From positions 13,973 through 77,972 of the forward strand of contig JAQBRI010000005.1 of the NCBI GenBank assembly GCA_028286585.1: a stretch of 64,000 bases of DNA, in the 5' to 3' direction. Origin of the DNA: Candidatus Kaiserbacteria bacterium (GTDB lineage: Bacteria > Patescibacteriota > Minisyncoccia > Phycocordibacterales > UBA2100). Position 1 is the stretch's first letter, and each line of letters opens with the position of its first letter. Below the pieces are notes generated by a model that saw nothing but the letters and a program-made list of their open reading frames with translations, did no database searches and had not been told where the DNA came from. Shown one piece after another: positions 5,472 to 51,586 of the stretch. The translations under genes and the position numbers were made by a program.

Positions 5472-7566
5472 CTATTGTCTTATTTTTTGTGACAGAAACA
5501 CCTGCATAGGTAGTGCAGCGCATCTCAAACAATGCCGAACCAACAGCAGAAAGCGTAACCGAAGTTGATCCCTCATTACGAGCTGTGATTGGTTTTGCAT
5601 TATATAGAATTGTACATGGATTGTTTGTACTCATACCGGTTGATGACCATATTACCAGAACATTTGATCCAAGTCGCGGAGTCGTCGCCTGGACGATTAT
5701 CTGTGCCGTTGCTGGAACATTTTGTGAAGTTGGTGTACCTGGGTTGAGTGCTTGCTGCAAGTTGGTCGATGCTGACGTATTGAGCTGTATTTGCTGCGGA
5801 GTATATTGTTGCTGTCCAGTTATTGGGTTGTATGTGGCGCCTCCGCTTGAAGAACCACCTGCCGAAGAGCCGCTTGATCCATAGGATGGCGCTTGTGGGT
5901 ATGATTGCGTCGGAGCATATTGCGTTTGAGGGTATCCGCTTGAGTATTGATTCTGAGGACTTGCTCCTACAGGAGCCGTTGCATACGCTGGTGCAGGGCT
6001 GGCATACGCAAATGGACTGCCTTGGAATTGAGTGGTCTGTGTACCTTCTCCGGCAAAACTAAACGGACTCGAAGAATTGGAAGAATACGCAGGAGCAGGA
6101 CTGCTATATGAAGGTCCGCTTGCGGCGGTTGGCGTTCCGCCCATATTAGTTTCTATTTTTCCAACAGCCTGAGCCAGCGTAATGTTTCCATTACCAAAAT
6201 TCACTGGATTGTTTGCAATAGAATATGATTGCAGTCCGATACTGTTTACCGTTGCGTCTGGATTGTTGGCGTATGCCTGTATGAACTTTGGTCCGTCCCC
6301 AACACCGATGTTGTGTATCAAATACGCTCCAGTTGCAGGATCAAGACCTGCCTGGTCAATGCGATCTCCATATTTGTTCAAATAATACGAGACCGACGAG
6401 GCAGTTACTTGTGCCGATGTTTCCGGATCAAATCGCAGTGATGGTGAAAGAGGTACGCCACCGTTCATGCGGGCACTATCTATTGCCCAGGTACTTGCTG
6501 TGTATTGAAAGAGCCCGCACGCTCCACTTCCTGAGCAGATGTTTGGATTACCGCCACTTTCTACTTTCATGTATTTGGCTAGCACACCGTCGGCCTTGCC
6601 GGTGAGCCCGTACTGGTCTTCAACTTTTTTTAGCATTTCGCCGTACCTTCCGCCAGGTAATGGTTTGTTTGGATCTTCTTGCGGAGCAGCAAAAGTTGAT
6701 CCAGCAGATCCAGCAGTATCTATCGATTTTTGCTGCTCTTCAGTACCAACTCCATTTGAAACAAGTGAACTAAATCCATCTGGCTGAAGCGAACTTATTT
6801 TGTTTACAGTATCAGGATTCAGCGTGATACCAAGATCGTTTTGCGCAGTCTGCTGCGCCTGGGCTACTTTTGATGGGTCTCCGGATACCAAATTTTGGAG
6901 CATGTCATATGCCTGATTTTTTTGTGAGGAATCCTGCGAAATAGTATCAGCCTTTTCTTTTTCGACACCAAGGTTTTGTAATGCTTGTGACAGCTTTGTG
7001 CTGTCGATCGCTCCATCAGTTCCCTTGATGCCGCTGATTGCCTGCTGTGCGACAGACTGTGCTGCAAGCCCACTCTGTTGTGTAAGCAAAGCGTCTATTT
7101 TTCCTTTTTGTTCTGGGTCACATTTTGAAACATCTTTCTCACTTGCCGGAGTTGAGCCGATAGCCGGAATCGAATAATGTACCGTTGCACACTCTGTTTG
7201 GAGCGTTGGCTTACAAGCGTCAGGTACGCACCAATTTAAATCCGCAGTAAGTGGAACTTTGGGCAAAATCATATTTGCCTTTGGTGTTATAGTTTTTTTG
7301 CCGGCAGCATCGATGGTTATGATGTCACTAATGCACTTATCGCTGTTTTCGGTACTCGCGTTTGCAGTTGTCTGTTTTGTTTTTATCTGCGCAGAAATTA
7401 ATTTTTTTATACAAAGTGAGGATGCTGTTTTTGGATCAAGTATTTTTGGCGCAGCGGTGGTCGCCGCAAAAAGTACCATCGGAGAAAATGCACACGCGAA
7501 GATTGCTACTGGCAAAAGAATACGTGTGAAATACATACGGTACATTGTACCTTTTATTCTATGCAA
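5461..7566 (-). CDS. secreted lysozyme-like (lytic transglycosylase/SLT-type) protein with S/P/A/Y-rich low-complexity linker
   Basis: The product has an N-terminal signal/TM segment. Its central motif KVESGGNPNICSGSGACGLFQYTASTW matches the catalytic E-S...GLMQ signature of SLT domains. The distal part is a SPAPAY/SYPQ low-complexity region. Confidence 0.55.
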   Translation of the reverse strand: MHRIKGTMYRMYFTRILLPVAIFACAFSPMVLFAATTAAPKILDPKTASSLCIKKLISAQIKTKQTTANASTENSDKCISDIITIDAAGKKTITPKANMILPKVPLTADLNWCVPDACKPTLQTECATVHYSIPAIGSTPASEKDVSKCDPEQKGKIDALLTQQSGLAAQSVAQQAISGIKGTDGAIDSTKLSQALQNLGVEKEKADTISQDSSQKNQAYDMLQNLVSGDPSKVAQAQQTAQNDLGITLNPDTVNKISSLQPDGFSSLVSNGVGTEEQQKSIDTAGSAGSTFAAPQEDPNKPLPGGRYGEMLKKVEDQYGLTGKADGVLAKYMKVESGGNPNICSGSGACGLFQYTASTWAIDSARMNGGVPLSPSLRFDPETSAQVTASSVSYYLNKYGDRIDQAGLDPATGAYLIHNIGVGDGPKFIQAYANNPDATVNSIGLQSYSIANNPVNFGNGNITLAQAVGKIETNMGGTPTAASGPSYSSPAPAYSSNSSSPFSFAGEGTQTTQFQGSPFAYASPAPAYATAPVGASPQNQYSSGYPQTQYAPTQSYPQAPSYGSSGSSAGGSSSGGATYNPITGQQQYTPQQIQLNTSASTNLQQALNPGTPTSQNVPATAQIIVQATTPRLGSNVLVIWSSTGMSTNNPCTILYNAKPITARNEGSTSVTLSAVGSALFEMRCTTYAGVSVTKNKTIVVQ

Positions 7567-7599: not shown

Positions 7600-7848
7600 C
7601 TAAAGGAGTACAACAACTGTGTTGTCAGCACACTCAACTACTCCAGAAGTCACTTCGTATTCCCTCTTTTCGTTGCCTGCTGCATTCAAAAATATTGTGC
7701 CATGCTTGAGCGTCGTTATAAACGGCTCGTGATGAGCGAGTACGGTAAATATTCCAGACTCACCTGGAAATGTTGCCGAAATTGCCTCTCCGCTGTATTG
7801 GGTCTCGCCAACGCTCGCGATCGTAATATGAAAAGTATGATCTGCCAT
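7600..7848 (-). CDS. atpC: F0F1 ATP synthase epsilon subunit
   Basis: The product is 82 aa and lies immediately downstream of atpD. The beta-sandwich N-terminal domain pattern (ITIASVGETQYSGEAISATFPGESGIFTVLAHHEP) is present. Confidence 0.85.
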   Translation of the reverse strand: MADHTFHITIASVGETQYSGEAISATFPGESGIFTVLAHHEPFITTLKHGTIFLNAAGNEKREYEVTSGVVECADNTVVVLL

Positions 7849-7855
7849 ACTTTGT

Positions 7856-9292
<1,437 letters not shown>

Positions 9293-9351: not shown

Positions 9352-11955
9352 TTATTGGATTGGGGTAGATGAGGAATCGAGTACAGGAGTTTCTGTTACA
9401 TCATTTTCTGAAGGTGTAGTGGTGCTAGTATCTGGTTCTGGCGTTGAATCTACTTGTGCAGGAGTTCCACCAATCCCTGTTCCCCTTCCGTTCAGCCCTG
9501 TTCCCGAAAGAAGAGCATCAAGTTGAGATTTGGTGATACAAGTAGTGGCGCCCGTGTTATCGCGCACACACAACTGATCTGTAGTAACTTTGTTTAGCCC
9601 ATTACTCGAAGATCCAAGCCAGCTTACGAGCGCGTCTTTAAACCCACCGGCAATACTTCCAATATCCTTAATCGCATTCACCGTCGCAGCAAGAATAGGA
9701 CGATCTTGGAGGGTGAGATAGCCGTTGTTGGTGGTGCCGACAGCTTCTGGTATTGCCGACCGGACATTTTGTGCTGAGAAGCCAGAATAACTATTTTGTG
9801 TATCAAGGCCTGAGAGTTGATTCCAGTGGTAAGAGATTGGTGAGAGCTTCATGATGTCTGAGAGTCCTCGGGTAAATGATCCGTCGATGTTTTTCAAACG
9901 TTCGTCAGAAGATACTGAAAGGTTACCACTTGCGTCGGTGGTGAGAGTTCCCGCGCCGAAGTTGGAGAAGCGGACAGTGCCGGTGGTAGACAACTGTGCG
10001 GTGGGGGTCGAGGTGCCGATGCCAACATTACCCACGCTATCAATCCTGACTCGCTCGGCATAGGTGCCGCCGTTGTTGGTAAGGAAAGCAAGACTACCCG
10101 TATTGGTGCCGCCAGGATATACATTTCGTATTGCCGAGATATTATTCCCGAGATAATCCCGGAAAGAAATTTGGGAGTTTGCGCCAGCACCGGTGTTAGA
10201 TTCTTGTAAAATTAAGGACTCGTCCAGCAGTCCAAACCCCGCTGTCCCCCCAAAAAAACCAGAAGTGGACCGGAACTGCCCATCCTTGGTAATTGTTGCC
10301 GTGTTGTTAAAAACACCGGCGTTCAAATTGTAAAATTTTAAGTCGGAACTTCCACTGGCACCCCCAGTAGTAAGAGTAGGCCGTATAGCGTTATACAAAG
10401 TCCCGGCGCCGTAGAAATCTACACTTCCAGGGATGGAGGTGCCGCCGTTTGTTGAGTTTGAAAGAGAGAGAGAACCATACTGGGTCGCACCACCCCCACT
10501 TCCCAAAATTTGAAGTGTAGTAGAGCCTGTGCCAACAGGAGAAGCAGTACCAATACCGACGTTGCCAGCTGAATCAATGCGCATTCGCTCGGAAAGAGTG
10601 GTGCTGCCACTGGGTGTCGTCAAGAATACGAGACGCCCTGGCATGCTGGAAGAACTGACTGTCGTTCCATCAACGGTGGCATTCATAGCTGCTGCCGTTT
10701 GATAGTTTGTACCATCAAATCCTTGCCAAAAATATTGGCCGAGATTCTGCCCGTTCGACACAATTGTTGGAGCGCCCGAGGTACCTTGTGCACGGCGGAA
10801 GCCAGTGTTGGCACTCGATGAAAAGCGTGTCATTACTATTCCAAAGGTCGAGGTATTAAAAATGTCGAGGCTCGTGCCTGCACTTGGAGAACTCGTTCCG
10901 ATGCCGACGTTTCCTGACTGATCAACAATAAAACTGACAGCAGTTGATGACGCGACAACAAATTGTGGAATAGATGCGTTTGCGGCTGCAGCAATGGAAA
11001 ACCTGCCCCACGGAGTAGATGTTCCTACACCAAGCTGTCCGGTTGAAGCAGTGAGTGCTGTTCCTGAATTATTTTTACCGTACAAAATGTTTTGAATGTT
11101 CATTTGATAATTGTCGGTAGAGGAAGCAGTATTTAATAGGTTACCTATCATAATATTGTTGGAGCCTGAAGTTATGTTTGACGATCCAGATCCGACAATA
11201 ATATTGCTATTTCCCGTAATGGCTCCGCCCGTAGTTCCTCCTGCGCTTCCACCAATAACAGTATTTCCACTGCCAGTCGTAATTAAATAACCTGCATTTG
11301 TGCCGACCACCGTGTTTGAGCCGCCTGTTGTATTGATCCAACCTGCATTAATTCCAAGAAAAACATTACCTGCTCCAAGAGTATTCGCATTGCCCGCGTT
11401 GTATCCAAAGAATGAATTGGCAAAACCACCTCCACTCGAGACATCGGGAATGTTTGCCCCGGAATTGAGACCAAAGATGGTATTGCGGTACGCTACCGAA
11501 CCTGTTGCATTTGCACCTACAGAATTTCCCACAAACAAGTTTGATGAATTACCCATGTTTGTAAATACCGCTTGACCGCCACCAATCGAGAATCCGATGT
11601 TACGAGGACCAGTACTTTGTGCTCCGCCAGACGCATTAATGCCACCATTTGCATCAAGTATGTACGAAGAAGACGAGGGCGGAGTGATGCCTATCCCCAC
11701 CTTGCCTGAGATACTGTCAACAAAGAGACTACTAGTACCTACGGAGAACCCTCCTGCAAACGTACTCGTTGCGGTAGTAGATGTCGCATTAATATTTGCT
11801 GCGGTAATAGTTATATTTACAACCAAACAGGTGGGATCGCTTGGTGAACAGTTTGGGTCTAAAGTTTGGCCGGGAGTGTACGTTGTGGCAAAGGCAGACA
11901 ACGGCACGAGAAAAGATACGGCGATAAAAAGGCCTATAGCTCGTACATTTTTCAT
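9352..11955 (-). CDS. tail-fibre-like secreted protein with C-terminal intramolecular chaperone (peptidase S74-like) domain
   Basis: The product has a signal peptide. It has many Gly/Asn/Thr-rich beta-helix repeats (GNSVGANATG, NTVVGTNAGY, RIDSAGNVGIGTASP, RIDSVGNVGIGTSTP). Near residue 683 (nt 9892–9909) is SDERLKNIDGSF...LSPISYHWN, the autocleavage/chaperone motif of endosialidase-type tail spikes. Confidence 0.6.
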   Translation of the reverse strand: MKNVRAIGLFIAVSFLVPLSAFATTYTPGQTLDPNCSPSDPTCLVVNITITAANINATSTTATSTFAGGFSVGTSSLFVDSISGKVGIGITPPSSSSYILDANGGINASGGAQSTGPRNIGFSIGGGQAVFTNMGNSSNLFVGNSVGANATGSVAYRNTIFGLNSGANIPDVSSGGGFANSFFGYNAGNANTLGAGNVFLGINAGWINTTGGSNTVVGTNAGYLITTGSGNTVIGGSAGGTTGGAITGNSNIIVGSGSSNITSGSNNIMIGNLLNTASSTDNYQMNIQNILYGKNNSGTALTASTGQLGVGTSTPWGRFSIAAAANASIPQFVVASSTAVSFIVDQSGNVGIGTSSPSAGTSLDIFNTSTFGIVMTRFSSSANTGFRRAQGTSGAPTIVSNGQNLGQYFWQGFDGTNYQTAAAMNATVDGTTVSSSSMPGRLVFLTTPSGSTTLSERMRIDSAGNVGIGTASPVGTGSTTLQILGSGGGATQYGSLSLSNSTNGGTSIPGSVDFYGAGTLYNAIRPTLTTGGASGSSDLKFYNLNAGVFNNTATITKDGQFRSTSGFFGGTAGFGLLDESLILQESNTGAGANSQISFRDYLGNNISAIRNVYPGGTNTGSLAFLTNNGGTYAERVRIDSVGNVGIGTSTPTAQLSTTGTVRFSNFGAGTLTTDASGNLSVSSDERLKNIDGSFTRGLSDIMKLSPISYHWNQLSGLDTQNSYSGFSAQNVRSAIPEAVGTTNNGYLTLQDRPILAATVNAIKDIGSIAGGFKDALVSWLGSSSNGLNKVTTDQLCVRDNTGATTCITKSQLDALLSGTGLNGRGTGIGGTPAQVDSTPEPDTSTTTPSENDVTETPVLDSSSTPIQ

Positions 11956-34498: not shown

Positions 34499-35047
34499 AT
34501 GCTGAACATCCAAAATCTGTCGCTCAAACGCATCGAACAGGCGTTTTACAGCGCCATGCGCGCTGGCTACGGCTCGAACAAGTCAAAGATAGAGCCGGTG
34601 TCCGGCTATCCAGCCTCAAAAAGCACTAGGCTCGAGACGAACGGCCTTCTTGTTGTCGACACCTGGTTTAGCAACCCAGGCTGCGACGGCAGCCACGGAT
34701 TCACCAACATTTATTGCGAAGACGTATTGGTGTGGTACATGATATACCATGGTTCCTACGAACCGAGTGCCGTGAAGGCATTAAAAGTGTTTTTGCAAAG
34801 AAGCTACCTCGAAAGCAGGTGGGTGCGTGGCGTGCACGAGGAGCAAATCGATATGAACGGCACTAAGTTTGAATACGGTTCGCATGCGCCCAGGGAGAAC
34901 CAGCTGACATTCGCCGAATTTCGAGCGCGCGAAACGATTCACTTCTGGGATGCCGACGACATGGACTGGCGGGAATGCGGTCATCATTTCTATGTTGGTG
35001 GCATTACCGATTACGCAAAAAACTTTCAACGAACTCACCGTGTATGA
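34499..35047 (+). CDS. hypothetical protein (182 aa) in GC-rich island; possibly DUF5680-like
   Basis: An AAGGAG RBS lies 7 nt upstream of the ATG. Local GC is about 60% against a 43% backbone. The product motifs NGLLVVDTWFSNPGCDGSHGF...HFWDADDMDWRECGHHFYVGG have no confident assignment. Confidence 0.45.
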   Translation: MLNIQNLSLKRIEQAFYSAMRAGYGSNKSKIEPVSGYPASKSTRLETNGLLVVDTWFSNPGCDGSHGFTNIYCEDVLVWYMIYHGSYEPSAVKALKVFLQRSYLESRWVRGVHEEQIDMNGTKFEYGSHAPRENQLTFAEFRARETIHFWDADDMDWRECGHHFYVGGITDYAKNFQRTHRV

Positions 35048-35210
35048 TCCTTTTCTCTGCCGCGCACCTGCGCGGCTTTTTTCTTATTGACTCATATCGT
35101 TACAGTCCTCTCAACCCGTCGACACAGGTATGTAAACATGGTATGTTTTTTCTCAGAGTTCAGATCTTTAATTAGGGATCGTTGGGCTCTTGCAATAGCA
35201 GGAGGTAGCA

Positions 35211-35801
35211 GTGAAGCACGAACAAATCGATCACGCCAAAGCCGAAGCGCTCAATGTCGAAAAAGCACTCCGGGTGATGGGCGCGCAAATTTGGCAGCCG
35301 CAGGATGTGCAAAAGCATATGCGCGATTTCGCCGGCTTCTGGCCTGAAGTTTGGGCCGGAAACTTGAAGTTCATGAAAATTTTGTTTGTTGGCACGATTC
35401 TGACTGGTTTAGCTGCGCTGGCGTGTCGTGCTATGGGCTTGCCGTACTTCAACACATTACTGGTAGCGACAATGCTATTGTTCGTAGCGATTATACTGTC
35501 GATCGCCACGGCTTACTTTACAAACGATATATCCTGGCGAACCAACTGGCTATTTACCGATGGACCTCGACAATACACCTATATGAAGGATGACAAAAAC
35601 GCGGCCATTCCCAAGATCGGTGAAAAGATTGTGCAAAACGTCCGCACAATGTGGCCGAAGGCTATGTTTTCGGTCACCTTCTTCGGGCGAGATCCGATCC
35701 TCAACTGCACCATCGACGGAATAACCACCTATCATGTTCTCGTCTGGGTCGAAAACTCCGACGGCACCATGACCATCATCCCGCCGCCGAGTCGAGGCTG
35801 A
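35211..35801 (+). CDS. hypothetical membrane protein (196 aa, two TM helices) in GC-rich island
   Basis: The coding region is GC-rich. The product has a hydrophobic core (ILFVGTILTGLAALACRAMGLPYFNTLLVATMLLFVAIILSIATAYF). Confidence 0.4.
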   Translation: MKHEQIDHAKAEALNVEKALRVMGAQIWQPQDVQKHMRDFAGFWPEVWAGNLKFMKILFVGTILTGLAALACRAMGLPYFNTLLVATMLLFVAIILSIATAYFTNDISWRTNWLFTDGPRQYTYMKDDKNAAIPKIGEKIVQNVRTMWPKAMFSVTFFGRDPILNCTIDGITTYHVLVWVENSDGTMTIIPPPSRG

Positions 35802-42716: not shown

Positions 42717-43493
42717 TTACGCTGTTACAGAAGCAGCTGGCTGTGCAGCTGGAGCGGCACGCTTACCGTCTTGGTAACTTTCTGAGACAGCATCGGAAAC
42801 TGTGCGAACCGATCGTACTGATGTGTCATTTCCTGGGATAGGATATTGGATGACAGAAAAATCACAGTCAGAACTAGCGAGTCCAACAACAGGAATGTTG
42901 AGCTGATTTGCTTCGCGGACTGCAATATGTTCATGTCGAGTATCAACAACAAAGAGTGCTGCTGGAAGTGATCCCATGTGTGCAATGCCTCCAAATCGAG
43001 AGATAAGCTTGTCAATCTGGCGATCAATCATGAGACGTTCTTTCTTGGTGTATTTGCCCAATTCTCCACGATCTCGCTCGCCACTCAATCGTTCCAATAG
43101 GTCGAGTCGTGTTCGAATATTCTTAAAATTAGTGAGAGTGCCTCCAATCCATCGTCCTGCAACGTATGGCTGTCCTGCGCGCTCAGCTGCAGCACGTACG
43201 ATTGCTTGTACTTCGTTTTTACCTCCGACAAAAAGGACAGTCTTACCTGCTTGTGCGAGATTTGATACAAATGTTGAGGCAGCAGTCAATCGATCGTTAG
43301 TATTATCAATATTAAACATATCGATCCGTTCTTTTACGGTACCGAGAAATGGAAGTGCTGTTGGGTGACGACGTGTGCGACTATAGCCGAAATGAGTTCC
43401 GGCGCTTTCAAGTATTTGAGTAGTGATATTTGTCATGAAAAAGTCCCACATCTGGGTAGCCTGCATAGTATCAGATTGAGGTGCTATATGCAA
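42717..43493 (-). CDS. rpsB: 30S ribosomal protein S2
   Basis: The product has LESAGTHFGYSRTRRHPTALPFLGTVKERIDMFNIDNTN. The likely start is MTNITTQ at nt 43433. There is a short Ala/Pro-rich C-terminal tail. Confidence 0.9.
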   Translation of the reverse strand: MHIAPQSDTMQATQMWDFFMTNITTQILESAGTHFGYSRTRRHPTALPFLGTVKERIDMFNIDNTNDRLTAASTFVSNLAQAGKTVLFVGGKNEVQAIVRAAAERAGQPYVAGRWIGGTLTNFKNIRTRLDLLERLSGERDRGELGKYTKKERLMIDRQIDKLISRFGGIAHMGSLPAALFVVDTRHEHIAVREANQLNIPVVGLASSDCDFSVIQYPIPGNDTSVRSVRTVSDAVSESYQDGKRAAPAAQPAASVTA

Positions 43494-43512
43494 CAGGCAG
43501 GCGTAAAGCTAA

Positions 43513-44502
43513 CTATTCGTCGTCGTCCCCTGCCTCAAGTTCGCCTTTTTCATATTTATCAAGGCTCTCGAGAATTGGGCCGATGCGTCCACCCATAATA
43601 GCTTCGATGTTTGACCATGATTGCTTGATGCGATGATCCGTCAATCGATCTTGGGGAAAGTTATATGTTCGAATCTTTTCCGAACGATCTCCGGTACCAA
43701 CCTGACCCTTGCGATCTGCGGCACGTTCACGATCTTCTTCTTCATCCTTTTTTTGCTGAAGCCGACTCATGAGCATGGTCATCGCCTTTTCTCTGTTTTG
43801 TGCCTGACTGCGCTCGGACGTCACGCGCACATCGATGCCTGTCGGCTTGTGAATGAGTCGTACCGCCGTTTCAACTTTGTTGACGTTTTGTCCTCCTTTA
43901 CCGCCAGAGCGTGAAAATTCTACTTCGATATCAGTTGGTGGAACTTCCATCTTGGTACGTTTGTAGAGCGGCAAGATTGCAACGGAGGCAGTCGAGGTAT
44001 GTATGCGTCCTGCTTTTTCTGTTGCAGGTACACGCTGTACGCGATGTACTCCCGTCTCAAAACGAAGTGTTCGGTAACAATCAACGCCCTTTATTTCAAA
44101 TTGTGCTTCTTTGATGCCACCCAATGCAGCGCGAGATTCATCAAGTTTTGTCCAAGTCCACTTTTGTACTTCGGCAAACCGCAAATACATATGAGCGAGT
44201 TCTTCTGCAAATAGCGAGGCCTCTTCACCTCCTACACCTGAGCGCACTTCAAGAATAACTTCGTTTGGCCATTCACGTTCGTTTGGGTTGCCAATGATGC
44301 TTTCCATTTGCTTCATAAGACTATCCTTTTGTGCAGAAATATCCTCAAGCTCCTTTTCGGCAAGCTCCTTCATGCCTGGATCAACTTCCAAAAGTTCACT
44401 GGCATCGTGTTCAGCCTGCGTAAGACGCTTCCATTCATCTACCAAAAAAGTTACCCGATGATCATCGGCGTAGTCGAGGGGTTGAATAGTATTGTCGGTC
44501 AT
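43513..44502 (-). CDS. prfA: peptide chain release factor 1
   Basis: The GGQ motif ([17 protein letters not shown]) and the RF1-type codon-recognition motif PAT ([17 protein letters not shown]) are present. The RF2-type SPF motif is absent. The product is 329 aa. Confidence 0.85.
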
Positions 44503-44561
44503 AGAGATATATCAGTATACAACAACACTCCGTGTAAAGACGGAGTGTTGGATATACGTAG

Positions 44562-44819
44562 TTATTTTTTAGAAACCTTAGCTTGTCGAGTCTTAAACTT
44601 CTCAACGCGTCCTGCAGTATCGATAACCTTGGACTGACCAGTATAAAATGGGTGTGAAGCACTCGAAATTTCGATTTGGTGAAGTGGGTATTCTTCTCCA
44701 TCTGGACCTTTGCCTGTTTTTGAGGTTTTGATGGTTGAGCCAATCAAAAAAGTCTTTCCTGAGGTAGTGTCCTCAAAGAGTACTGTTCGGTAACTTTCTG
44801 GATGTGTATCTTTTTTCAT
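44562..44819 (-). CDS. rpmE: 50S ribosomal protein L31 (type B, no Cys cluster)
   Basis: The 85-aa product begins [13 protein letters not shown] and contains [20 protein letters not shown]. Confidence 0.85.
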
Positions 44820-44866
44820 TGGTTACACTATACCGTAAAGCAGCCTTCTTTGCAACACCAGGGTGA

Positions 44867-46192
44867 TTAGGTGCCCGCATTGACCACATCAATATCCTTT
44901 TGGTATTTAGCAGCGAGCGTCATGACTTCATTGCCATAAAAGGCATATTTTGAATTTGTGGCGTTTTTCCAGCCTGCCAAGTAGCGCAGTGCAGCAAGGC
45001 GCTCGTCCGCTGCATTGCCGCTGTCTGCCCCATTATCCTTCATGAGAAGCGCTGTTGCAAAGGCTGCGGTACGAGGACTCCATGGATTTGGCGGACTTTG
45101 ATTGGTTGCGGCCGAGATGCGATCGGCGTAGAGCACCCATGTCGATGGTATAAATTGTCCCGGTCCCATAGCGCCACCCCAGCCGTACCATGCTTTCTTG
45201 GAAACGGGTTGTGAATCGGGATCGAGGCCAAGCTGTGTACAAATAGTTTGAAAAACAGGAGCATCACGCGTTGGATTCATATCTGTTTTCCAATTTCCAG
45301 TTCCTATATTTTGTCCAAGATTACTTTCTTCGGAAAGAATCCCGAGGATTAGCGCCGGTCGCACACCAGTTGCCGCTCCCGCTTCTTTTGCATAACTATA
45401 AATATCACCGAACGAAACTGAGGTATTTCCGTTTGCTAGCGAGAAAAGTGCTTTTTGGATCTGCGCAGCGGTTTGTTGTTGTGTTGCAATTAATTTCTTG
45501 TAGCTCGATTCTTGGCCCTTGGTCGCACTAATGAGAGTCTGTTTACTTTGCTGTGCACTTTGTAGTGTCTTTTTTTGCTGTGTTTGAATCACAAGCAAAT
45601 CACTTTGCTGCTGTTTTTTGTCTTGGAGTGATGCCACGTGCGCGGACAAATCACCCCGCTGCTGTGACATTTTTTCAAATGCAGTCTGCATGGATTTTTG
45701 GATCGATTGATAGTCATCATTTTCGCGAAATACATCACTAAACGATCCTGACAAAGTAATTTGTGCAGGAGTTTTTTGGTCGAGCTGACTCACATTACGC
45801 ATTATTTGAGCAAGAGATGCCATGCCATCCTTTACGCTGGTGTCCAATCCTTGAATCGATTCCTGATCTCCTCCGATTGAGTCTTTGAGCTGTGCAATTT
45901 GAAGATCCCGCTGCTGCATTTCGAGCTGTGATTCCTTGATCTGAGCATTGAGCACTGTTACGTCACGCTCGAGAGACGCCTGTTGTTTTTGAGTATTACT
46001 CAGTTTGATTTGATTGTCTTGAATTTGGGCCTGTACTTGCAAAAGCTGTGTCTGTAATAGCGCACGATCACTTGCAGTGTCCGCATGGGCAATCGGCGTA
46101 TGCGCAACACTCATCAAAAGTACATAACAAAAAAAAGCTACACACCCCAACAAGGATATGTACCCCAATAACTGTACATGCAGCGAACGCAT
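44867..46192 (-). CDS. membrane-anchored coiled-coil protein with C-terminal lytic murein transglycosylase-like domain
   Basis: The product has an N-terminal TM helix and about 200 aa of Gln-rich coiled coil. A C-terminal domain has GPGQFIPSTW (compare the G-x-MQFIPSTW motif of MltB-type lytic transglycosylases) and WYGWGGA. Confidence 0.55.
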   Translation of the reverse strand: MRSLHVQLLGYISLLGCVAFFCYVLLMSVAHTPIAHADTASDRALLQTQLLQVQAQIQDNQIKLSNTQKQQASLERDVTVLNAQIKESQLEMQQRDLQIAQLKDSIGGDQESIQGLDTSVKDGMASLAQIMRNVSQLDQKTPAQITLSGSFSDVFRENDDYQSIQKSMQTAFEKMSQQRGDLSAHVASLQDKKQQQSDLLVIQTQQKKTLQSAQQSKQTLISATKGQESSYKKLIATQQQTAAQIQKALFSLANGNTSVSFGDIYSYAKEAGAATGVRPALILGILSEESNLGQNIGTGNWKTDMNPTRDAPVFQTICTQLGLDPDSQPVSKKAWYGWGGAMGPGQFIPSTWVLYADRISAATNQSPPNPWSPRTAAFATALLMKDNGADSGNAADERLAALRYLAGWKNATNSKYAFYGNEVMTLAAKYQKDIDVVNAGT

Positions 46193-46243
46193 GGATAACA
46201 GTATATCATGCGATTCATTTTACAAAAATTGTATCGTGCTGAA

Positions 46244-46900
46244 TTATTCAGCAGTCTCTTCTGTTGGTGCTTCTACTGGCTCTGCAAGTGATTCCTTTGT
46301 TGGAAGCTGCTCTTCTTCTTTTACTTCTTCGTATGAAGTAACTGATGCTACTGTTTCTTCTGGATTTGTCTTGAGTTCGGCACTTGATGGAAGCTTGATA
46401 TCAGCAACAGTGAGATGATCTCCCAAATTTACGAGTGATGAAATATCAACCTCAAGATGGTGAGGCAATTGTGCGGCAGAGACTTCGATCTCGATTTCAT
46501 GCATTGCCTTAACAATGATAAATCCAGCCTTTTCTGCTTGTGATTCTCCAACAAAGTGCAATGGAACTGCAACTTCGATCTTCTTACCCTTTTCGAGAAC
46601 ATAAAAATCTGCATGGATAACGATACCGGTCACTGGGTGAATTTGAACATCGTGGATCAAGGTCTCCTTTGGAGCTCCGATGCCTTCGAGCATGACGAGA
46701 GTTGTTTCTCCTGCCTCTTTCCAAACACTTTCAAGCTTACGAGCGTCTACAGTGATAGCTTGTGCAGCCTCCTTTTTTCCGTAAAAAACAGCAGGAGTCA
46801 TTCCCTTTGAACGTAAAAGTTCAGTGGATTCCTTTCCCATGTCTTCTCGTGCCGTAACTTGTAGTGTTAACATGGGCTGCAGTATACCGTTTTGTGGCAT
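46244..46900 (-). CDS. rplY: 50S ribosomal protein L25 / general stress protein Ctc
   Basis: The product has LTLQVTAREDMGKESTELLRSKGMTPAVFYGKK and an acidic C-terminal tail. The likely start is MLTLQV. Confidence 0.8.
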   Translation of the reverse strand: MPQNGILQPMLTLQVTAREDMGKESTELLRSKGMTPAVFYGKKEAAQAITVDARKLESVWKEAGETTLVMLEGIGAPKETLIHDVQIHPVTGIVIHADFYVLEKGKKIEVAVPLHFVGESQAEKAGFIIVKAMHEIEIEVSAAQLPHHLEVDISSLVNLGDHLTVADIKLPSSAELKTNPEETVASVTSYEEVKEEEQLPTKESLAEPVEAPTEETAE

Positions 46901-46967
46901 TTTTGCAAGGATTCTATCGCTGTACGTATTTTAATGGTCGTTAAAATGCGTACATTTTAGAGAAGGT

Positions 46968-47858
46968 TTACTTACCGGAGAAAAGACGTAGATATTTTTC
47001 GGTCATTGCCTGTACTCCAGCAACGCCTCCTGCCAAGAATTTGTATGGTGCTATTTCGTCGATATTTGCGACAAGTGCTTCTTCTATCCCCTTGCGATAC
47101 GCAACGCGGATGTCAGTATTGATGTGCACAATCGAGCATCCTGCAGGACCTGCGGCTCCTAAGTCGGAATCAGACGAACCCGATCCGCCATGTAATACCA
47201 ATGGAATATTAATTGCATCTCGTATTGCAGTGATGCGAGCAAGATCAATCTTGGGCTCCCCTCCTCCCTTAAGACGTCCGTGCATCGTGCCCACAGCAGG
47301 CGCGAGCAAATCAACTCCGGTTTCGGTAACAAAATGTACAGCCTCTTCTACCGTTGTGAGATTTGCATCCATATCTTCTGGTGGTGCATCGAGTAATTTA
47401 CTCGAAGTGCCGATGCGTCCAATTTCTGCCTCGACAATGATATCGCGGCCAGAGGCCCGGGCATACGCAACTATTTCTTTTGTGTTTGCAATATTCTCAT
47501 CCATAGGCAAATGACTGCCGTCAAAAATAACCGCATCATATCCGGCATCAATAACTGATTTTACTCCTTCAACTGAGTATGTGTGATCGGCGTTAAGGTA
47601 TACCTGTAGCCCGGCTTCGCGCGCAACTCGCACCAGCGCTGCAAGATTTTTTTCACCAATAAATTTGCGCTCACCTTCTGAGGCACCAATAATTACTGGA
47701 ACTCCAACAGCCTGCGCTGCTGCAATAACCGCATTGCTTTGATTGGAGTCTGAAACATTAAAGTGTCCAATCGCATACTTGCCTTCTCGCGCTTGTGTAA
47801 TTGCTTCTCGTAGTGTTTGCATATGCAAATATAGTAACACACAAACACAAACCGCCAC
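46968..47858 (-). CDS. fba: class II fructose-bisphosphate aldolase (FBA/tagatose-bisphosphate aldolase family)
   Basis: The product has the MQTLREAITQAREGKYAIGHFNV motif. The Zn ligands and motifs are present (HGGSGSSDSD, NADHT, VHINTD). The likely start is MQTLREAI at nt 47822. Confidence 0.85.
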   Translation of the reverse strand: MAVCVCVLLYLHMQTLREAITQAREGKYAIGHFNVSDSNQSNAVIAAAQAVGVPVIIGASEGERKFIGEKNLAALVRVAREAGLQVYLNADHTYSVEGVKSVIDAGYDAVIFDGSHLPMDENIANTKEIVAYARASGRDIIVEAEIGRIGTSSKLLDAPPEDMDANLTTVEEAVHFVTETGVDLLAPAVGTMHGRLKGGGEPKIDLARITAIRDAINIPLVLHGGSGSSDSDLGAAGPAGCSIVHINTDIRVAYRKGIEEALVANIDEIAPYKFLAGGVAGVQAMTEKYLRLFSGK

Positions 47859-47877
47859 TTGTGGTGGCGGTTTGTGT
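47845..47877 (-). terminator. rho-independent terminator of the repeat-protein gene
   Basis: The hairpin is acacaaaccgccac-ttgt-ggtggcggtttgtgt (14-bp stem). It is followed on the minus strand by ttgtgtgttact. It lies between the surface-protein stop and the fba start. Confidence 0.55.
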
Positions 47878-47881
47878 AACT

Positions 47882-47914
47882 TTATTTTGGAGCGTAAGCC
47901 ACGTCTGACGTGGG
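47882..47914. repeat. conserved 3'-flank element copy 1 (ttattttggag…CCACGTCTGACGTGG hairpin)
   Basis: It shares ttattttggag plus the palindrome ccacgtYtgacgtgg with the copy at 51536..51577. Both copies lie just past the stop codons of the two paralogous surface-protein genes. Confidence 0.55.
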
Positions 47915-47934
47915 CACCTATAAGGACGACGGGC

Positions 47935-49599
47935 TTATGAACGATTGATCACAAGTCGTGGTACCCCACCGACTGTTTCCATGGTCATTGAGTCACCTTT
48001 TTGAGTAACCGCTACTGGTGTAGCTACTACTGTTGGTGCAACAACTGGCTGTACAGGAGTTGTAATAGCCTTTGCTACAAAGTTAACTGGCTTTACCGGC
48101 TTGTATCCCTTGATAGCTTGCGTTGCGAGTCGAGCAGCGCCACCGTTCATATACACGATAAGGTATGCGCCAGAGACAGCAAAGAGTCCGAGAGCAAACC
48201 AGTAGATTGAATTTCCAAGAACTCCGAAATCAAAACCGGTATAAGGGATTTGAGAGAGTGAAATTGCTGCAACATTGTTTCCAACATTGATGTTCACACT
48301 ACAATTTGAAGTTTGTCCGTTCGAGCTAGTGATAGTAAGCACGTAGTTGGTTGAACTGTATGGATGCACGGTCAACGTACCTGTTGTGTTTACATTTCCA
48401 ACTCCCGAGAGTGAAGCGTAATTTGCTCCAGTTGCAGCCCACGCAAGTACTGTTGAATCACCACTACGAACTGATGTTCGAGTCGCACTGATGTAACAAG
48501 CAAATGCCTGATTGTTGATGTACTGCACTGGCTGTGAGTAGATCGGTGTAACAACGTTGTTGTTATTATTGTTATTGTTGATCACAACTGGGTTGTATGA
48601 ATTCGAGTTTTGGTACGAGTATCCTGGGTATGAAGTGTATACGATCGGTTGCGGGTAAGTATTTCCACGGCAGTTTGGATAGACACCAGTAAGACCCTGT
48701 TGCGCACATGTTGGTACCGGTTGTGGAGGGTATGAACAGTGTGGGTATGTTCCGATCATGCCTTGCTGCACACAGGTTGGAATTGGTTGCTGTGGGTAAG
48801 TAGGGTATGAGGGATATGAAGGAGTTCCAGGGTATGTTGGGTACGAAGGCGTTGAAGGTCGTGAAGGAGTACTTGGGTAACTCGGTGCGTATTGCACTGA
48901 TGATCCCTGTGCTATTGAGTAACCTTGTGAAGAGTAGCCCTGTGAACTTCCGTAACCGCTTGAGTAACTACTGCCATATGATGGAGAGTAGGAACTATCG
49001 TACGATGGTGAGTATGAGCTGTCGTATGACGGTGAGTAAGAAGAATCGTATGAAGCCGTATATGAAGAATCATATGATGGAGAATACGCAGAGTCGTACG
49101 ATGGACTGTATGCACTATCGTACTGAGGTGAATATGATGAGTCATATGATGGTGAGTACGCTGAATCATATTGTGGAGAATACGATGAATCGTATGATGG
49201 AGAATACGAACTATCGTAAAATGGTGAGTATGAGGAATCATACGACGGAGAGTATGAACTGTCGTAAAATGGTGAGTACGAAGAATCATAAGAAGGACTG
49301 TATGAAGAATCATACTGTGGAGAATATGAAGAGTCGTATGACGGACTGTATGATCCACCGTAACTTGGTGAATATGAGGAATCGTATCCCCCACTGTATG
49401 AGCCTGAGTAGTCAGACACATCACCACAACAACCCTCGTCAAATTGTGCATTTGCAATTACCGGCATTACTGATGTAACAACAGTAAAAGCTGCCACAAT
49501 GAATGCGATTCGTGAACTTTGTATAAAATTTGTCATATGATTTTTTTCTAATTCGCACGTAATAATTAACTGCTTACTAATTTTGAGGAGTAAAAACAA
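47935..49599 (-). CDS. cell-surface repeat protein, paralogue 1 (20 tandem DSSYSPSY repeats, Asn8 tract, Ig-like domain, C-terminal IPYTG–TM–basic tail)
   Basis: The product has a signal peptide (start probably MTNFIQ at nt 49536). It has perfect 24-nt periodicity across about 480 nt, then QGYSSQGYSIAQGSSVQYAP and a P/Y-rich linker. The shared C-terminus is LSQIPYTGFDFG + hydrophobic helix + YMNGG + basic residues. Confidence 0.6.
   Translation of the reverse strand: MFLLLKISKQLIITCELEKNHMTNFIQSSRIAFIVAAFTVVTSVMPVIANAQFDEGCCGDVSDYSGSYSGGYDSSYSPSYGGSYSPSYDSSYSPQYDSSYSPSYDSSYSPFYDSSYSPSYDSSYSPFYDSSYSPSYDSSYSPQYDSAYSPSYDSSYSPQYDSAYSPSYDSAYSPSYDSSYTASYDSSYSPSYDSSYSPSYDSSYSPSYGSSYSSGYGSSQGYSSQGYSIAQGSSVQYAPSYPSTPSRPSTPSYPTYPGTPSYPSYPTYPQQPIPTCVQQGMIGTYPHCSYPPQPVPTCAQQGLTGVYPNCRGNTYPQPIVYTSYPGYSYQNSNSYNPVVINNNNNNNNVVTPIYSQPVQYINNQAFACYISATRTSVRSGDSTVLAWAATGANYASLSGVGNVNTTGTLTVHPYSSTNYVLTITSSNGQTSNCSVNINVGNNVAAISLSQIPYTGFDFGVLGNSIYWFALGLFAVSGAYLIVYMNGGAARLATQAIKGYKPVKPVNFVAKAITTPVQPVVAPTVVATPVAVTQKGDSMTMETVGGVPRLVINRS
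48924..49410. repeat. coding tandem repeat array, about 20 copies of a 24-nt unit (encodes D-S-S-Y-S-P-S-Y with Q/F/A/G variants)
   Basis: Visible in the translation: YDSSYSPSYDSSYSPFYDSSYSPSYDSSYSPQYDSAYSPSY. The nucleotide units are imperfect (synonymous variation). Confidence 0.7.
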
Positions 49600-49705
49600 C
49601 TGTTGCTATTATATCAGATAACTGATCATTGTCAATAGGTGGAATAAAAGTATTTTGGCGTCGGCAACATTGGAGTTGCCGACGCACTTTTCTCATTTTT
49701 TTTGC

Positions 49706-50176
49706 TCAGTGAGCCGGTACCGAAGGGTGCCCGGGTCCCCCGCACGCCTCGACGCCCAAAAGGCACGCGAGTGCCGGTGAAGTGTTACCGCGGCCGGACA
49801 AAATCGGATTGATTTCCGAATCGCCTGTCAGCAGCACACTGTGTTCCGAACACAGATACACGTCGTCGGGTTTTCCGCCGCCATGCATCCAGTAGTTTTG
49901 CGGATAGCAAAACTGCCCTTGTGCCGATGGAATCGTCTTCGCGTCGCGTATGACTTCCTTGCCTTTTCGCGAAACGATGATTGTGACATTCGCACCGGCC
50001 GAAGGCAGGACGAAGTTCACGCACACCAGAGGTTTTGTGGTCGGACGAGGCGCGCGAGGCTTTGCATGCTTATACAGCATACAGAGTTCGTCGCAGTCTG
50101 CGGGCAAGCTGCGAGCTTCTACAGTAGCGGGAAGCCACAGCAGAAACATGCTAATGAGAAAGTAAAAGATCTTCAT
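49706..50176 (-). CDS. small secreted Cys-containing hypothetical protein (156 aa) in GC-rich island
   Basis: The product has a signal peptide (MKIFYFLISMFLLWLPATVEA) and 8 Cys. An AAGGAGGG RBS is present. Local GC is about 65–73%. Confidence 0.45.
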   Translation of the reverse strand: MKIFYFLISMFLLWLPATVEARSLPADCDELCMLYKHAKPRAPRPTTKPLVCVNFVLPSAGANVTIIVSRKGKEVIRDAKTIPSAQGQFCYPQNYWMHGGGKPDDVYLCSEHSVLLTGDSEINPILSGRGNTSPALACLLGVEACGGPGHPSVPAH

Positions 50177-50207
50177 GGCCCCCTCCTTGAGTTGTTCGCC
50201 GAATGGC

Positions 50208-50254
50208 GAATTCGTGAGTGCCTGGCTGACATCAATATCTTGATATCAATCAGG
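50208..50254 (-). promoter_or_regulatory. conserved 5' leader / operator-like element, copy 1
   Basis: GAATTCGTGAGTGCCTGGCTGacATCAAtatcTTGATatCAATCAGG lies 30–75 nt upstream of the start codon. It contains the inverted repeat ATCAA-N4-TTGAT and is about 80% identical to copy 2. Confidence 0.45.
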
Positions 50255-50335
50255 CAATTGCGAAAATAAAAAACTAAAAGTAGTGTGGCGGAAGGGTAAA
50301 GAATTTCTTCTTCAATGTTCCCTTCCGCCAATAGA

Positions 50336-50650
50336 TCAACGGGTCCCCGACATGCGAACCATGCCATCGTGACGACCCGCCGCGTCGCATCGGAAATTTG
50401 CGTCGGCCGGAGGAATTCCTCCGAACGGGCGTCCGTTTGTGTCGTAGAACACCGGTCTGGTATTCACGCCGAATTGCGTTCGCCGCTTGTTGGCCTGCTC
50501 GAAACAACGAACAATTCCAGCCTGCCATTGCGGATTTCCGCTCGTGAGAACGGGAGCCGAGATTGGCGGAAGCGCGAAACGTTTCGGTGCTTCTTGCGCA
50601 GAAACAACGGTCGAAGCAATGATGAATGCGGTGACGAAGAACAATTTCAT
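50336..50650 (-). CDS. small secreted hypothetical protein (104 aa) in GC-rich island
   Basis: The product has a signal peptide (MKLFFVTAFIIASTVVSAQEA). The gene has its own hairpin terminator (GGCGGAAGG…CCTTCCGCC at 50274–50320) and a leader element like that of the neighbouring gene. Confidence 0.45.
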   Translation of the reverse strand: MKLFFVTAFIIASTVVSAQEAPKRFALPPISAPVLTSGNPQWQAGIVRCFEQANKRRTQFGVNTRPVFYDTNGRPFGGIPPADANFRCDAAGRHDGMVRMSGTR

Positions 50651-50683
50651 GGCCTTCTCCTGTGGTTGCCTGTCTTGACGACA

Positions 50684-50730
50684 GAATTCGTGAGTGCCTG
50701 GCTGGTATCAAATAATTGATAACAATCAGG
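50684..50730 (-). promoter_or_regulatory. conserved 5' leader / operator-like element, copy 2
   Basis: GAATTCGTGAGTGCCTGGCTGgtATCAAataaTTGATaaCAATCAGG lies upstream of the 50336..50650 gene. Confidence 0.45.
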
Positions 50731-50792
50731 TACTAATGAAAAAGTATTGGCGGAAGGAGCATGATGAATCATGTTTCCTTCCGCCGAATTGA

Positions 50793-51344
50793 TCAGATCG
50801 CGCCAGATTCGGTAAAGCGCGCGTCGAAGTGGCAACGGGACAACGAGTTCATGTCGCCGGAAACTTCCGGCCTGACCTCGGTGCGATGCCATTCTGCGCG
50901 CTTGGCCGCCTGCTCCTCGCACCTGTTCTTGAATTCGCCGAACTTCGACGCGTTCTGATTCTGCGACGCCTCCGGAGTTGGCGAGCGACCTTGCGGGCCG
51001 CCGCGATCCGAGAAGCCGAGATTCGGCTGACGTTCGACGCTCGCGGAAAATTCGCGCTCATCGATCATCGGTTGCTGCGCGTCGTGCGACGAACCAAAGA
51101 TGCGACCGCGGCCACGACCGCTGTGGAGCGCGACAAGCGCCCGCAGTTTCGCCGCGGACATCCTCGGAACTCGCGAACCTTTCGGTTGGCAACGTTCGTC
51201 GATGCCCATATAGTCGCCGCGATGCTGACCGCACGGATTGCCGGCAGCCTCGGCGTTCGTCGCGGTGATCGGTGCCGAGGCGACCGAACCAACGAGAGCG
51301 AGGGCGAAAGCAGACGCAAAGGCGAAAGATGCAATCTTGATCAT
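50793..51344 (-). CDS. secreted hypothetical protein (183 aa), Arg/Gly-rich, in GC-rich island
   Basis: The product has a signal peptide (MIKIASFAFASAFALALVGSVASA). The terminator hairpin GGCGGAAGG…CCTTCCGCC at 50747–50790 lies downstream. Confidence 0.4.
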   Translation of the reverse strand: MIKIASFAFASAFALALVGSVASAPITATNAEAAGNPCGQHRGDYMGIDERCQPKGSRVPRMSAAKLRALVALHSGRGRGRIFGSSHDAQQPMIDEREFSASVERQPNLGFSDRGGPQGRSPTPEASQNQNASKFGEFKNRCEEQAAKRAEWHRTEVRPEVSGDMNSLSRCHFDARFTESGAI

Positions 51345-51535
51345 GTGTAAAAGACCTCCGTTGTGCCTGTTCGGGTGAACTAGGCTTGGGTTCTAGAGAG
51401 ATGAATATCTCCCCAGCTAGTACAATGATAGCATGCAAGAGCCGTTTTGTCAAGCCCCTGTACCATCGCACCTAAAATAGGTGTACCACACTATAAACAC
51501 AAAAACCACCCCTTTCGAGATGGTTTTTGCTGACC

Positions 51536-51577
51536 TTATTTTGGAGTCTTTGAGTGCTGGACCACGTTTGACGTGGG
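51536..51577. repeat. conserved 3'-flank element copy 2 (ttattttggag…CCACGTTTGACGTGG hairpin)
   Basis: See copy 1. A further weak hairpin plus a tttgtgttt tract follows, as in paralogue 1. Confidence 0.55.
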
Positions 51578-51586
51578 GCGGCGGCT

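Follow-up and report, generated by a model that had tools for sequence, protein, structure and literature searches.

We analyzed a 64,000-nucleotide stretch of a Candidatus Kaiserbacteria genome (GenBank assembly GCA_028286585.1, contig JAQBRI010000005.1, positions 13,973 to 77,972), here called the window, with a focus on a GC-rich island at 49.6-51.5 kb. The island carries three small genes on the minus strand, P3, P2 and P1 in the direction of reading, and the last two are each preceded by a copy of the same leader. In what follows we describe this leader as an RNA module that lies between the genes. The background of the window is that of an ordinary bacterial chromosome, with gyrB, uvrABC, several aminoacyl-tRNA synthetases, ribosomal proteins S2 and L25, a release factor, a class II fructose-bisphosphate (FBA) aldolase and four tRNAs. 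At NCBI the P1-P3 set is named JWO50_201 to JWO50_203, from a Candidatus Kaiserbacteria metagenome-assembled genome (MAG). The features of the island, in window positions and in the order of reading on the minus strand, are the following:

51425-51453, minus strand: canonical promoter of sigma-70 type upstream of P3, TTGACA-17-TATCAT with TG, scoring 11/12 in the promoter scan
50793-51344, minus strand: P3, open reading frame (ORF) of 183 amino acids with 4 Cys, putative secreted protein; first cistron, without a module upstream
50749-50785, minus strand: hairpin H0 of module a, GGCGGAAGG...CCTTCCGCC, folding energy -22.7 kcal/mol, beginning 7 nt past the P3 stop codon
50648-50744, minus strand: core of module a, covariance-model match of 77.7 bits
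50736-50740 paired with 50687-50691, minus strand: closing helix of module a
50716-50730 paired with 50697-50711, minus strand: long hairpin of module a, with its loop at 50712-50715
50670-50684, minus strand: small hairpin H3 of module a, followed by the Shine-Dalgarno sequence (SD) at 50657-50660 and the P2 ATG at 50648-50650
50336-50650, minus strand: P2, ORF of 104 amino acids with 2 Cys, putative secreted protein
50287-50329, minus strand: hairpin H0 of module b, with the GGCGGAAGG/CCTTCCGCC stem, folding energy -25.7 kcal/mol, beginning about 5 nt past the P2 stop codon
50174-50268, minus strand: core of module b, covariance-model match of 80.7 bits
50260-50264 paired with 50211-50215, minus strand: closing helix of module b
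50240-50254 paired with 50221-50235, minus strand: long hairpin of module b, with its loop at 50236-50239
50195-50210, minus strand: small hairpin H3 of module b, followed by the SD at 50182-50188 and the P1 ATG at 50174-50176
49706-50176, minus strand: P1, ORF of 156 amino acids with 7 Cys, putative secreted protein
49658-49685, no strand assigned: hairpin after P1 at the putative operon end, GCGTCGGCAAC...GTTGCCGACGC, with no module behind it

The two leader copies (50208-50266 and 50684-50742) are 80% identical over 59 nt and share their first 21 nt, and the window holds no third copy at up to 3 mismatches, where the chance expectation is 0. The motif ATCAA-N4-TTGAT occurs twice (50231-50244 and 50707-50720) against 0.2 expected, and the GGCGGAAGG...CCTTCCGCC stem is found at the two H0 hairpins and nowhere else in the 64 kb. 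An earlier reading of this DNA, made from its letters alone (hereafter the sequence-only reading), had pointed to this stem at two hairpins and to a duplicated leader with the ATCAA-N4-TTGAT site, a small hairpin and a strong ribosome binding site, which it took for a regulatory module shared by two genes. The repeat search and the positions of SD and H3 confirm this description, and the leader is a genuine shared module. The covariance model finds 2 copies only over the 64 kb, with the next match at 17.7 bits (E=0.16), and in related loci the copies are confined to one operon. Both results speak against a dispersed repeat of the REP (repetitive extragenic palindrome), BIME (bacterial interspersed mosaic element) or MITE (miniature inverted-repeat transposable element) kind.

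On the sense strand the module is about 150 nt long and is composed, in order, of H0, a spacer with a U-tract, the closing helix, an internal loop, the long hairpin, H3 and the SD. H0 is GC-rich with a purine-rich 5' arm, and a short A/C-rich spacer and the U-tract come after it. The closing helix has 5 bp (UUUCGU/ACGAA) and the internal loop is a pyrimidine-rich 5x5 loop with invariant nucleotides. The long hairpin has 14 bp; its base, CCUGAUUG/CAGCCAGG, contains a conserved A-C mismatch and a U-G wobble, and its apex and loop are variable. The ATCAA-N4-TTGAT palindrome is the apical five pairs of this hairpin, with the 4-nt spacer as its loop. H3 is a small, optional hairpin, and the strong SD (AAGGAGG) is mostly followed by AGCC and AUG. 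Both intergenic regions of the window fold with strongly negative z-scores, -6.5 and -5.5.

Copies outside the window were collected in two ways. In the first, a pattern on the conserved flanks CCTGATTG ... CAGCCAGGC was scanned through metagenome and genome collections, and on inspection a match counted as a true copy if its core was accompanied by a GC hairpin and a T-tract, together with an SD and a small gene. This inspection removed most of the 82 metagenome matches and 24 of the 27 genome matches as chance or coding matches, and true copies remained on about a dozen further contigs. Among species-representative genomes, true copies are present in three MAGs only, all from the candidate phyla radiation (CPR): a Candidatus Kaiserbacteria, a Candidatus Adlerbacteria and one labelled 'Saccharibacteria'. 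The pattern was found on none of the viral contigs. In the second way, the contigs of ten more distant members of the P1 protein family were fetched by protein identity alone, ignoring the DNA motif. Five of the ten (L116, L117, L119, L121 and L123) carry the module at 46-60 bits, and in L123 two closing-helix pairs have changed in a compensatory manner, from C-G to U-A and from G-C to A-U. L124 and L125 keep the hairpin, the closing helix and the long hairpin with a different sequence, and L125 keeps the A-C mismatch as well; the module of L118 is degenerate and L126 is cut at the contig end. In L003 and L004, which hold more distant P1 homologues, the leader is recognisable but diverged. The leader is found upstream of other genes in relatives, a finding on which the sequence-only reading had in part made its proposal depend.

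The genes that follow the module are clear members of the P1 family in 9 of 19 cases and marginal ones in 3 of 19, and the rest encode unrelated small secreted proteins. The module is tied to one secreted-protein family in Kaiserbacteria/Adlerbacteria-like genomes. A diverged copy in an Adlerbacteria MAG, with a UCUGAUUA...UAAACAGA base and a score of 55 bits, was observed at L099 5238-5333 (the same as L041 6821-6916, minus strand). It stands directly before a large surface protein with YPEYDSTF repeats, where it replaces the usual promoter of that gene, and the module is therefore not restricted to small proteins.

For the analysis of covariation, 19 module copies were aligned with MAFFT, and in a second alignment 24 copies, all from Kaiserbacteria/Adlerbacteria-like contigs, were aligned to the covariance model R1. 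RNAalifold on the 19 copies gives the same two helices as above, the 5-bp closing helix around the 14-bp hairpin with the CCUGAUUG/CAGCCAGG base. In this alignment 87.7% of the cells are paired, compared with 75.0% after shuffling of columns (a value reached in 0 of 500 shuffles), and the covariation score is 0.363 against 0.151 in the shuffled set. When the pairing partners are slid by 1-3 columns, pairing falls to 30-47%. In the alignment of 24 copies, 92.8% of the cells are paired against 77.4% shuffled (0/500), and 10 pairs have changes on both sides; this alignment was fitted to the model and so leans towards the structure, whereas the MAFFT-based result is without that bias. The apical pairs vary in a compensatory way; for example, one pair is AU in 12 copies, CG in 6 and UA in 4. 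One A-C mismatch is kept in 20 of the 24 copies, and an SD with a start codon terminates all 24.

The strand on which this structure acts can also be read from the alignment. Across the 24 copies, 57 cells are G-U and 14 are A-C, and the sense strand is 92.8% paired compared with 83.3% for the antisense strand; model R1 scores sense copies at 46-85 bits and the antisense of the same copies at 16-33 bits. The module is, by generic criteria, a structured cis-acting mRNA leader, with a covarying fold on the sense strand at a fixed distance before the SD and start codon.

It is worth asking whether the same leader could instead work in DNA. The sequence-only reading had proposed a binding site for a DNA-binding factor or a duplicated promoter. 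In full, such an explanation would make each small gene its own unit, with the leader as a duplicated promoter whose palindromic operator is bound by a dimeric regulator, and the GGCGGAAGG hairpins would terminate the genes before them. Both copies do contain a perfect inverted repeat of 5 nt around a 4-nt spacer, present nowhere else in the 64 kb, a hairpin and a T-rich tract stand before every copy, and in the window and in L001, a related contig, the sequence TGnTATCAA resembles an extended -10 element. Yet the ATCAA and TTGAT arms are exchanged in relatives for GAAAATC/GGTTTTC, GCAC/GTGC and GGATA/TATCC, complementary in every case. Half-sites that are swapped for other complementary pairs show the behaviour of a helix and not of a sequence-specific operator. 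The excess of G-U over A-C is moreover a single-strand signature, unexpected in duplex DNA.

The promoters of the locus speak against such an operator as well. Genuine promoters in these genomes are near-consensus (TTGACA-N16-18-TAnnnT), and those that flank the island score 11-12 of 12. On the minus strand of 49400-51700 there are only two canonical promoters, 51453->51425 upstream of P3, which is kept in L001 at 6454-6482, and 49635->49608 downstream of P1, which serves a 534-aa surface protein. The scan of the minus strand found no -35/-10 pair at 16-18 nt spacing above the threshold inside either module. The closing helix, which covaries, is located at the 5' edge of the module and 5' of any possible -10; this edge must be transcribed, so transcription enters from upstream, through H0. 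With unconserved half-sites, no promoter hexamers and a strand bias, we regard the operator as very improbable, and this part of the sequence-only reading is not supported.

The arrangement of related loci fits a module inside an operon. In every larger locus that we mapped, a canonical promoter is followed by a first gene without a module and then by the module gene or genes on the same strand, so that the module is always second or later; the next promoter in the larger loci drives a repeat-rich protein of 435-533 aa. The operon order in relatives is a sortase, a variable first gene, the module, a small secreted protein with Cys, and the large repeat-rich surface protein. The sortase was observed upstream in several loci, e.g. 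L003 3862-4584 and L123 419-1054. Taken together, the module has a conserved, covarying structure, stands in one orientation at a fixed distance from the start codon, and contains no canonical promoter.

The hairpin H0 deserves separate attention, as each of the three genes had been assigned its own hairpin terminator. The hairpins are real. Every one of the 23 copies tested has an H0 before it, with folding energies from -22.7 to -34.7 kcal/mol; only 25% of random windows reach -22.7, and where the upstream ORF could be determined H0 usually starts 2-15 nt past its stop codon. All 23 have the GC-rich stem-loop of an intrinsic terminator but not the U-tract at 0-2 nt; the U-run mostly begins about 2-8 nt after the stem, behind the A/C-rich spacer, and the spacer of L088 is longer. 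In the window the T-runs stand 5-7 nt away from the stems, the terminator scan called neither H0 hairpin, and the GGCGGAAGG hairpins are part of the module; their assignment as terminators is not supported. The hairpin after P1 (49658-49685) is terminator-like in its score on the plus strand only, with a T-run at 49686-49710, and on the gene strand it continues as CAAAATACTTTTATT; it may be a bidirectional terminator, or serve mainly against antisense read-in.

At the other end of the island, the 5' untranslated region (UTR) of P3 (51345-51424, minus strand, about 80 nt) is conserved with the corresponding region of L001 (6483-6561). It contains two hairpins, one of which is GCCU-N-GUUC...GAAC-AGGC, and matches neither the module model nor Rfam. 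The idea that it is a fragment of 5S rRNA was dropped, as Rfam gave no hit. The search of 49400-51700 against Rfam 15 gave no match at E<=1, and over the whole window only the four tRNAs and sub-threshold chance matches were obtained. For six further module loci, Rfam matches reached only 20-23 bits where the gathering scores are 35-75, and at least 2 of these matches lie outside the module. The leader is a new motif of a known general kind, absent from Rfam.

The comparison with L001 shows how the island differs between close relatives. L001 is syntenic with the window over a repeat-rich surface protein, the FBA aldolase, L25, an SLT-domain protein, the release factor and S2, and its housekeeping proteins are 88-98% identical (about 94%) to those of the window. 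Its island has the order promoter, P3 orthologue, module, P2 orthologue, module, extra gene, module, P1 orthologue. The extra gene (within L001 7571-8156), which the window lacks, encodes 94 aa, has a low GC (0.42), begins with its ATG at 7720 and ends at 8004. The two modules that flank it are 100% identical over about 110 nt, whilst orthologous modules of the two genomes are 75-85% identical. This pattern agrees with a gene gained or lost when modules recombine, and with repeats that evolve in concert.

Such a difference in gene content raises the question of a cassette system at the DNA level, in which the modules would be recombination sites of single-stranded DNA, similar to attC sites or Vibrio cholerae repeats (VCR), that insert and excise promoterless cassettes for secreted proteins. 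Several observations agree with it: the modules are imperfect palindromes between small promoterless genes behind one upstream promoter, with an apical part that is conserved more in structure than in sequence; the cistrons differ in GC (0.62, 0.57 and 0.56 for those of the window, 0.42 for the extra L001 gene); and close relatives differ in gene content with identical repeats around the extra gene. However, no integrase, transposase or other recombinase appears in the Pfam scans of 36 window ORFs or in the Pfam lists of L001, L003, L004, L119, L121 and L123, and no RYYYAAC/GTTRRRY core sites were seen by inspection. The last cistron has no module after it (only an unrelated hairpin) and the first has no attI-like site before it, the module includes the SD and start codon at a fixed distance, only 2 copies exist in 64 kb, and the locus is syntenic across genomes. 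We find a cassette system very improbable. Another option is that the leader is a functionless residue of a recent tandem duplication of intergenic DNA, made of a terminator hairpin and incidental structure. The window copies are 77-80% identical and the L001 copies show gene conversion, as this option would have it. Against it, the element persists before genes that are unrelated and in lineages with P1 proteins only 20-50% identical, together with its invariant loop nucleotides and compensatory changes, which makes a mere residue hardly credible.

Within 42717-57071, protein identity between the window and L001 falls steeply, from 88-98% in housekeeping proteins to 67-83% in repeat-rich surface proteins and 36-73% in the small secreted ones. 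This gradient suggests that genes for the cell surface are under diversifying selection or undergo allele replacement. The surface proteins on both sides of the island (47935-49539 and 51587-52990, both on the minus strand) are paralogous Ser/Tyr/Asp-rich repeat proteins of the YDSSYSPS type, each with its own canonical promoter. Their C-terminal part is common to both and consists of a run of Asn, then QIPYTGFD (LPXTG-like), then a hydrophobic helix, and after it a further tail. In the 534-aa protein this tail ends in PRLVINRS and matches tails found in relatives. They matched no Pfam or NCBIfam family. In relatives, a repeat protein of this kind comes after the module gene wherever the contig extends far enough.

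The composition of the island had been given as 60-73% GC and had been taken as a sign of horizontal acquisition. The island is an outlier, but its GC in 200-nt windows is 0.52-0.665, lower than that figure. Gene GC of the three island genes is 0.56-0.62, and GC at third codon positions (GC3) is 0.62 in P1, 0.58 in P2 and 0.71 in P3, compared with a GC of 0.457+-0.025 and a GC3 of 0.395+-0.066 in the 35 genes upstream of 47.9 kb. This shift in GC3 is genuine and is no amino-acid effect, and the L001 island has the same GC shift. Horizontal acquisition is only weakly favoured by this shift: the island is syntenic in L001, homologues with a named source are from CPR only (Kaiserbacteria/Adlerbacteria-like), and blastn of the island against plasmid and phage collections gave no match. 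As the same island is present at the same locus in L001, an independent assembly, it is not a chimera; misassembly or contamination, which the sequence-only reading had wished to see checked, is effectively excluded by independent assemblies from other samples.

Genes with an elevated GC3 (0.56-0.67 versus 0.40) were also observed at 34499-35801, 53145-53660, 58003-59550, 60906-62126 and 62554-63858. They are scattered through the window, and the island is thus one of several compositional patches. The high-GC3 genes of 53-64 kb that were scanned had no Pfam or NCBIfam match. The gene at 53145-53660 encodes a further small secreted protein with its own promoter, and its L001 orthologue is 54% identical. 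Elsewhere, among housekeeping genes, an 867-aa protein (9352-11955, minus strand) contains a Peptidase_S74 domain (chaperone of endosialidase), a domain typical of phage tail fibres and spikes.

The products of the island are, as had been proposed, small secreted proteins with Cys and without a recognisable domain. By inspection, the N-termini of P1, P2 and P3 each consist of K and a hydrophobic stretch followed by a cleavage-type site (VEA, VSA or ASA), and scans of the three proteins gave zero Pfam or NCBIfam matches. The profile of the P1 family recovers 34 proteins (clusters) at E<=1e-3 among 1.84 billion representatives; a homologue 73% identical to P1 is present on six Joint Genome Institute (JGI) contigs, of which L001 is one. 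In the family alignment Cys 32, 90 and 109 are invariant and Cys 28 and 52 nearly so. A structure prediction, which had been recommended for the products, was run for P1. With 7 sequences the AlphaFold model had a mean predicted local distance difference test score (pLDDT) of 55.6 and was unusable, and the model with the 34-sequence alignment was used instead (pLDDT 89.7, predicted TM-score (pTM) 0.77). It is confident and shows mainly beta-strands with few short helices, yet Foldseek against PDB and BFVD returned nothing at E<=1e-3, with a top TM-score of about 0.3. For P2 and P3 the word-indexed homologue search gave only self matches, and orthologues were obtained only through synteny with L001: P2 is 62% identical to its orthologue, and P3 is an orphan except for its own, at 36%. 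A surface or host-interaction role would fit P1, to judge by its predicted secretion, its rapid divergence and its position near sortase and surface-protein genes.

Several known systems resemble the module in part. Hairpins that control processing or stability between cistrons are known from the RNase III sites of phage T7 (R1.1 type), from Rhodobacter puf and from the stem-loops of E. coli pap and malEFG. Like the module, these lie between cistrons of one operon and have a lower stem, an internal loop and an upper stem; the GC-rich hairpin upstream could protect a 3' end, and the expected outcome is differential expression of the cistrons. There is no sequence relationship with them, and in the module CCUGAUUG/CAGCCAGG and the loop nucleotides are conserved more strictly than a generic RNase site would require. 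Riboswitches and protein-binding leaders in Rfam also have a conserved covarying structure right upstream of the SD and are tied to one gene family. In contrast to these, the module is intercistronic and not promoter-proximal, has no Rfam 15 match even at the permissive threshold used above, and no convincing expression platform was found for it.

Elements of the EAR/epsC type act in processive antitermination in Bacillales, inside operons for extracellular products. The likeness is an RNA element in a surface or extracellular operon where terminator-like hairpins must be read through. Unlike EAR, the module is downstream of the hairpin that would have to be bypassed, and it has no pseudoknotted EAR fold, no Rfam match and a home in another phylum. 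The attC or VCR repeats of sedentary chromosomal integrons share imperfect palindromes, small promoterless genes, one promoter and variable content with this locus; the module differs in that no IntI was found, that R''/R' cores are absent, that it has a sense-strand G-U bias and includes the SD and start codon in the unit, and that none follows the last gene.

The explanation that best fits these data, to which we give a probability of roughly two thirds, is that the three genes form one operon in which the duplicated leader is a conserved intercistronic RNA module with a post-transcriptional role, in a secreted-protein operon of Kaiserbacteria-type ultra-small bacteria. P1-P3 would be transcribed as one operon from the promoter at 51425-51453, and each of the two downstream cistrons, P2 and P1, would be preceded by a module that acts on the polycistronic mRNA. 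The module would be a recognition site, which we infer and favour, for a trans-acting factor or endonuclease, and through this factor the downstream secreted-protein cistron would have a stability or translation independent of the upstream cistron. H0 could be a leaky terminator, or it could stabilise the upstream segment at its 3' end. Incidentally, the repeated modules would act as homology handles for the gain, loss and conversion of cistrons.

A number of points weigh against this operon explanation. Co-transcription, processing and the trans-acting factor are all deduced from sequence. H0 could terminate efficiently in vivo, and no obvious promoter would then remain for the downstream genes; the TGnTATCAA of the window and L001 hairpins may be a weak internal promoter in a sub-lineage. 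Because the 24 copies are related to one another, the comparison with shuffled columns makes the significance look greater than it is, a bias that sliding the partners and retrieving loci through the protein reduce but do not abolish. Nor is there a clear sign of how translation would be controlled. A possible anti-SD helix, between the 3' strand of the internal loop (GGCUYUC) and GRRAGCC before the AUG, reaches 78.9% pairing, compared with 78.7% after shuffling, with no covariation. In single-sequence partition functions the SD is predicted to pair with different partners in different copies, and the copies have no consistent expression platform in common. The module may also be a riboswitch or a self-cleaving element. 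A bolder and, in our opinion, unlikely version is that it is a new functional RNA class of Kaiserbacteria/Adlerbacteria-type CPR, either a switch for a ligand or protein or a self-processing or RNase-directed element. It would gate fast-evolving secreted disulfide proteins beside a major surface-protein gene, and would serve in addition as a recombination handle that shuffles host-interaction cistrons between genomes.

To our knowledge, few regulatory RNAs have been described in CPR/Patescibacteria and almost no regulation has been experimentally characterised in this group; full-text literature searches for an element or protein family of this kind in CPR gave no result. The locus also shows that a perfect palindrome, even one that stands upstream of two genes, need not be an operator. 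The module is a well-delimited RNA motif of one operon type, supported by covariation. Its cargo genes are far less conserved than their housekeeping neighbours, a pattern that is expected at a host or phage interface. As the P1 family is tiny and no fold relative of it was recognised, the motif offers a handle for finding candidate host-interaction genes in an uncultured lineage.

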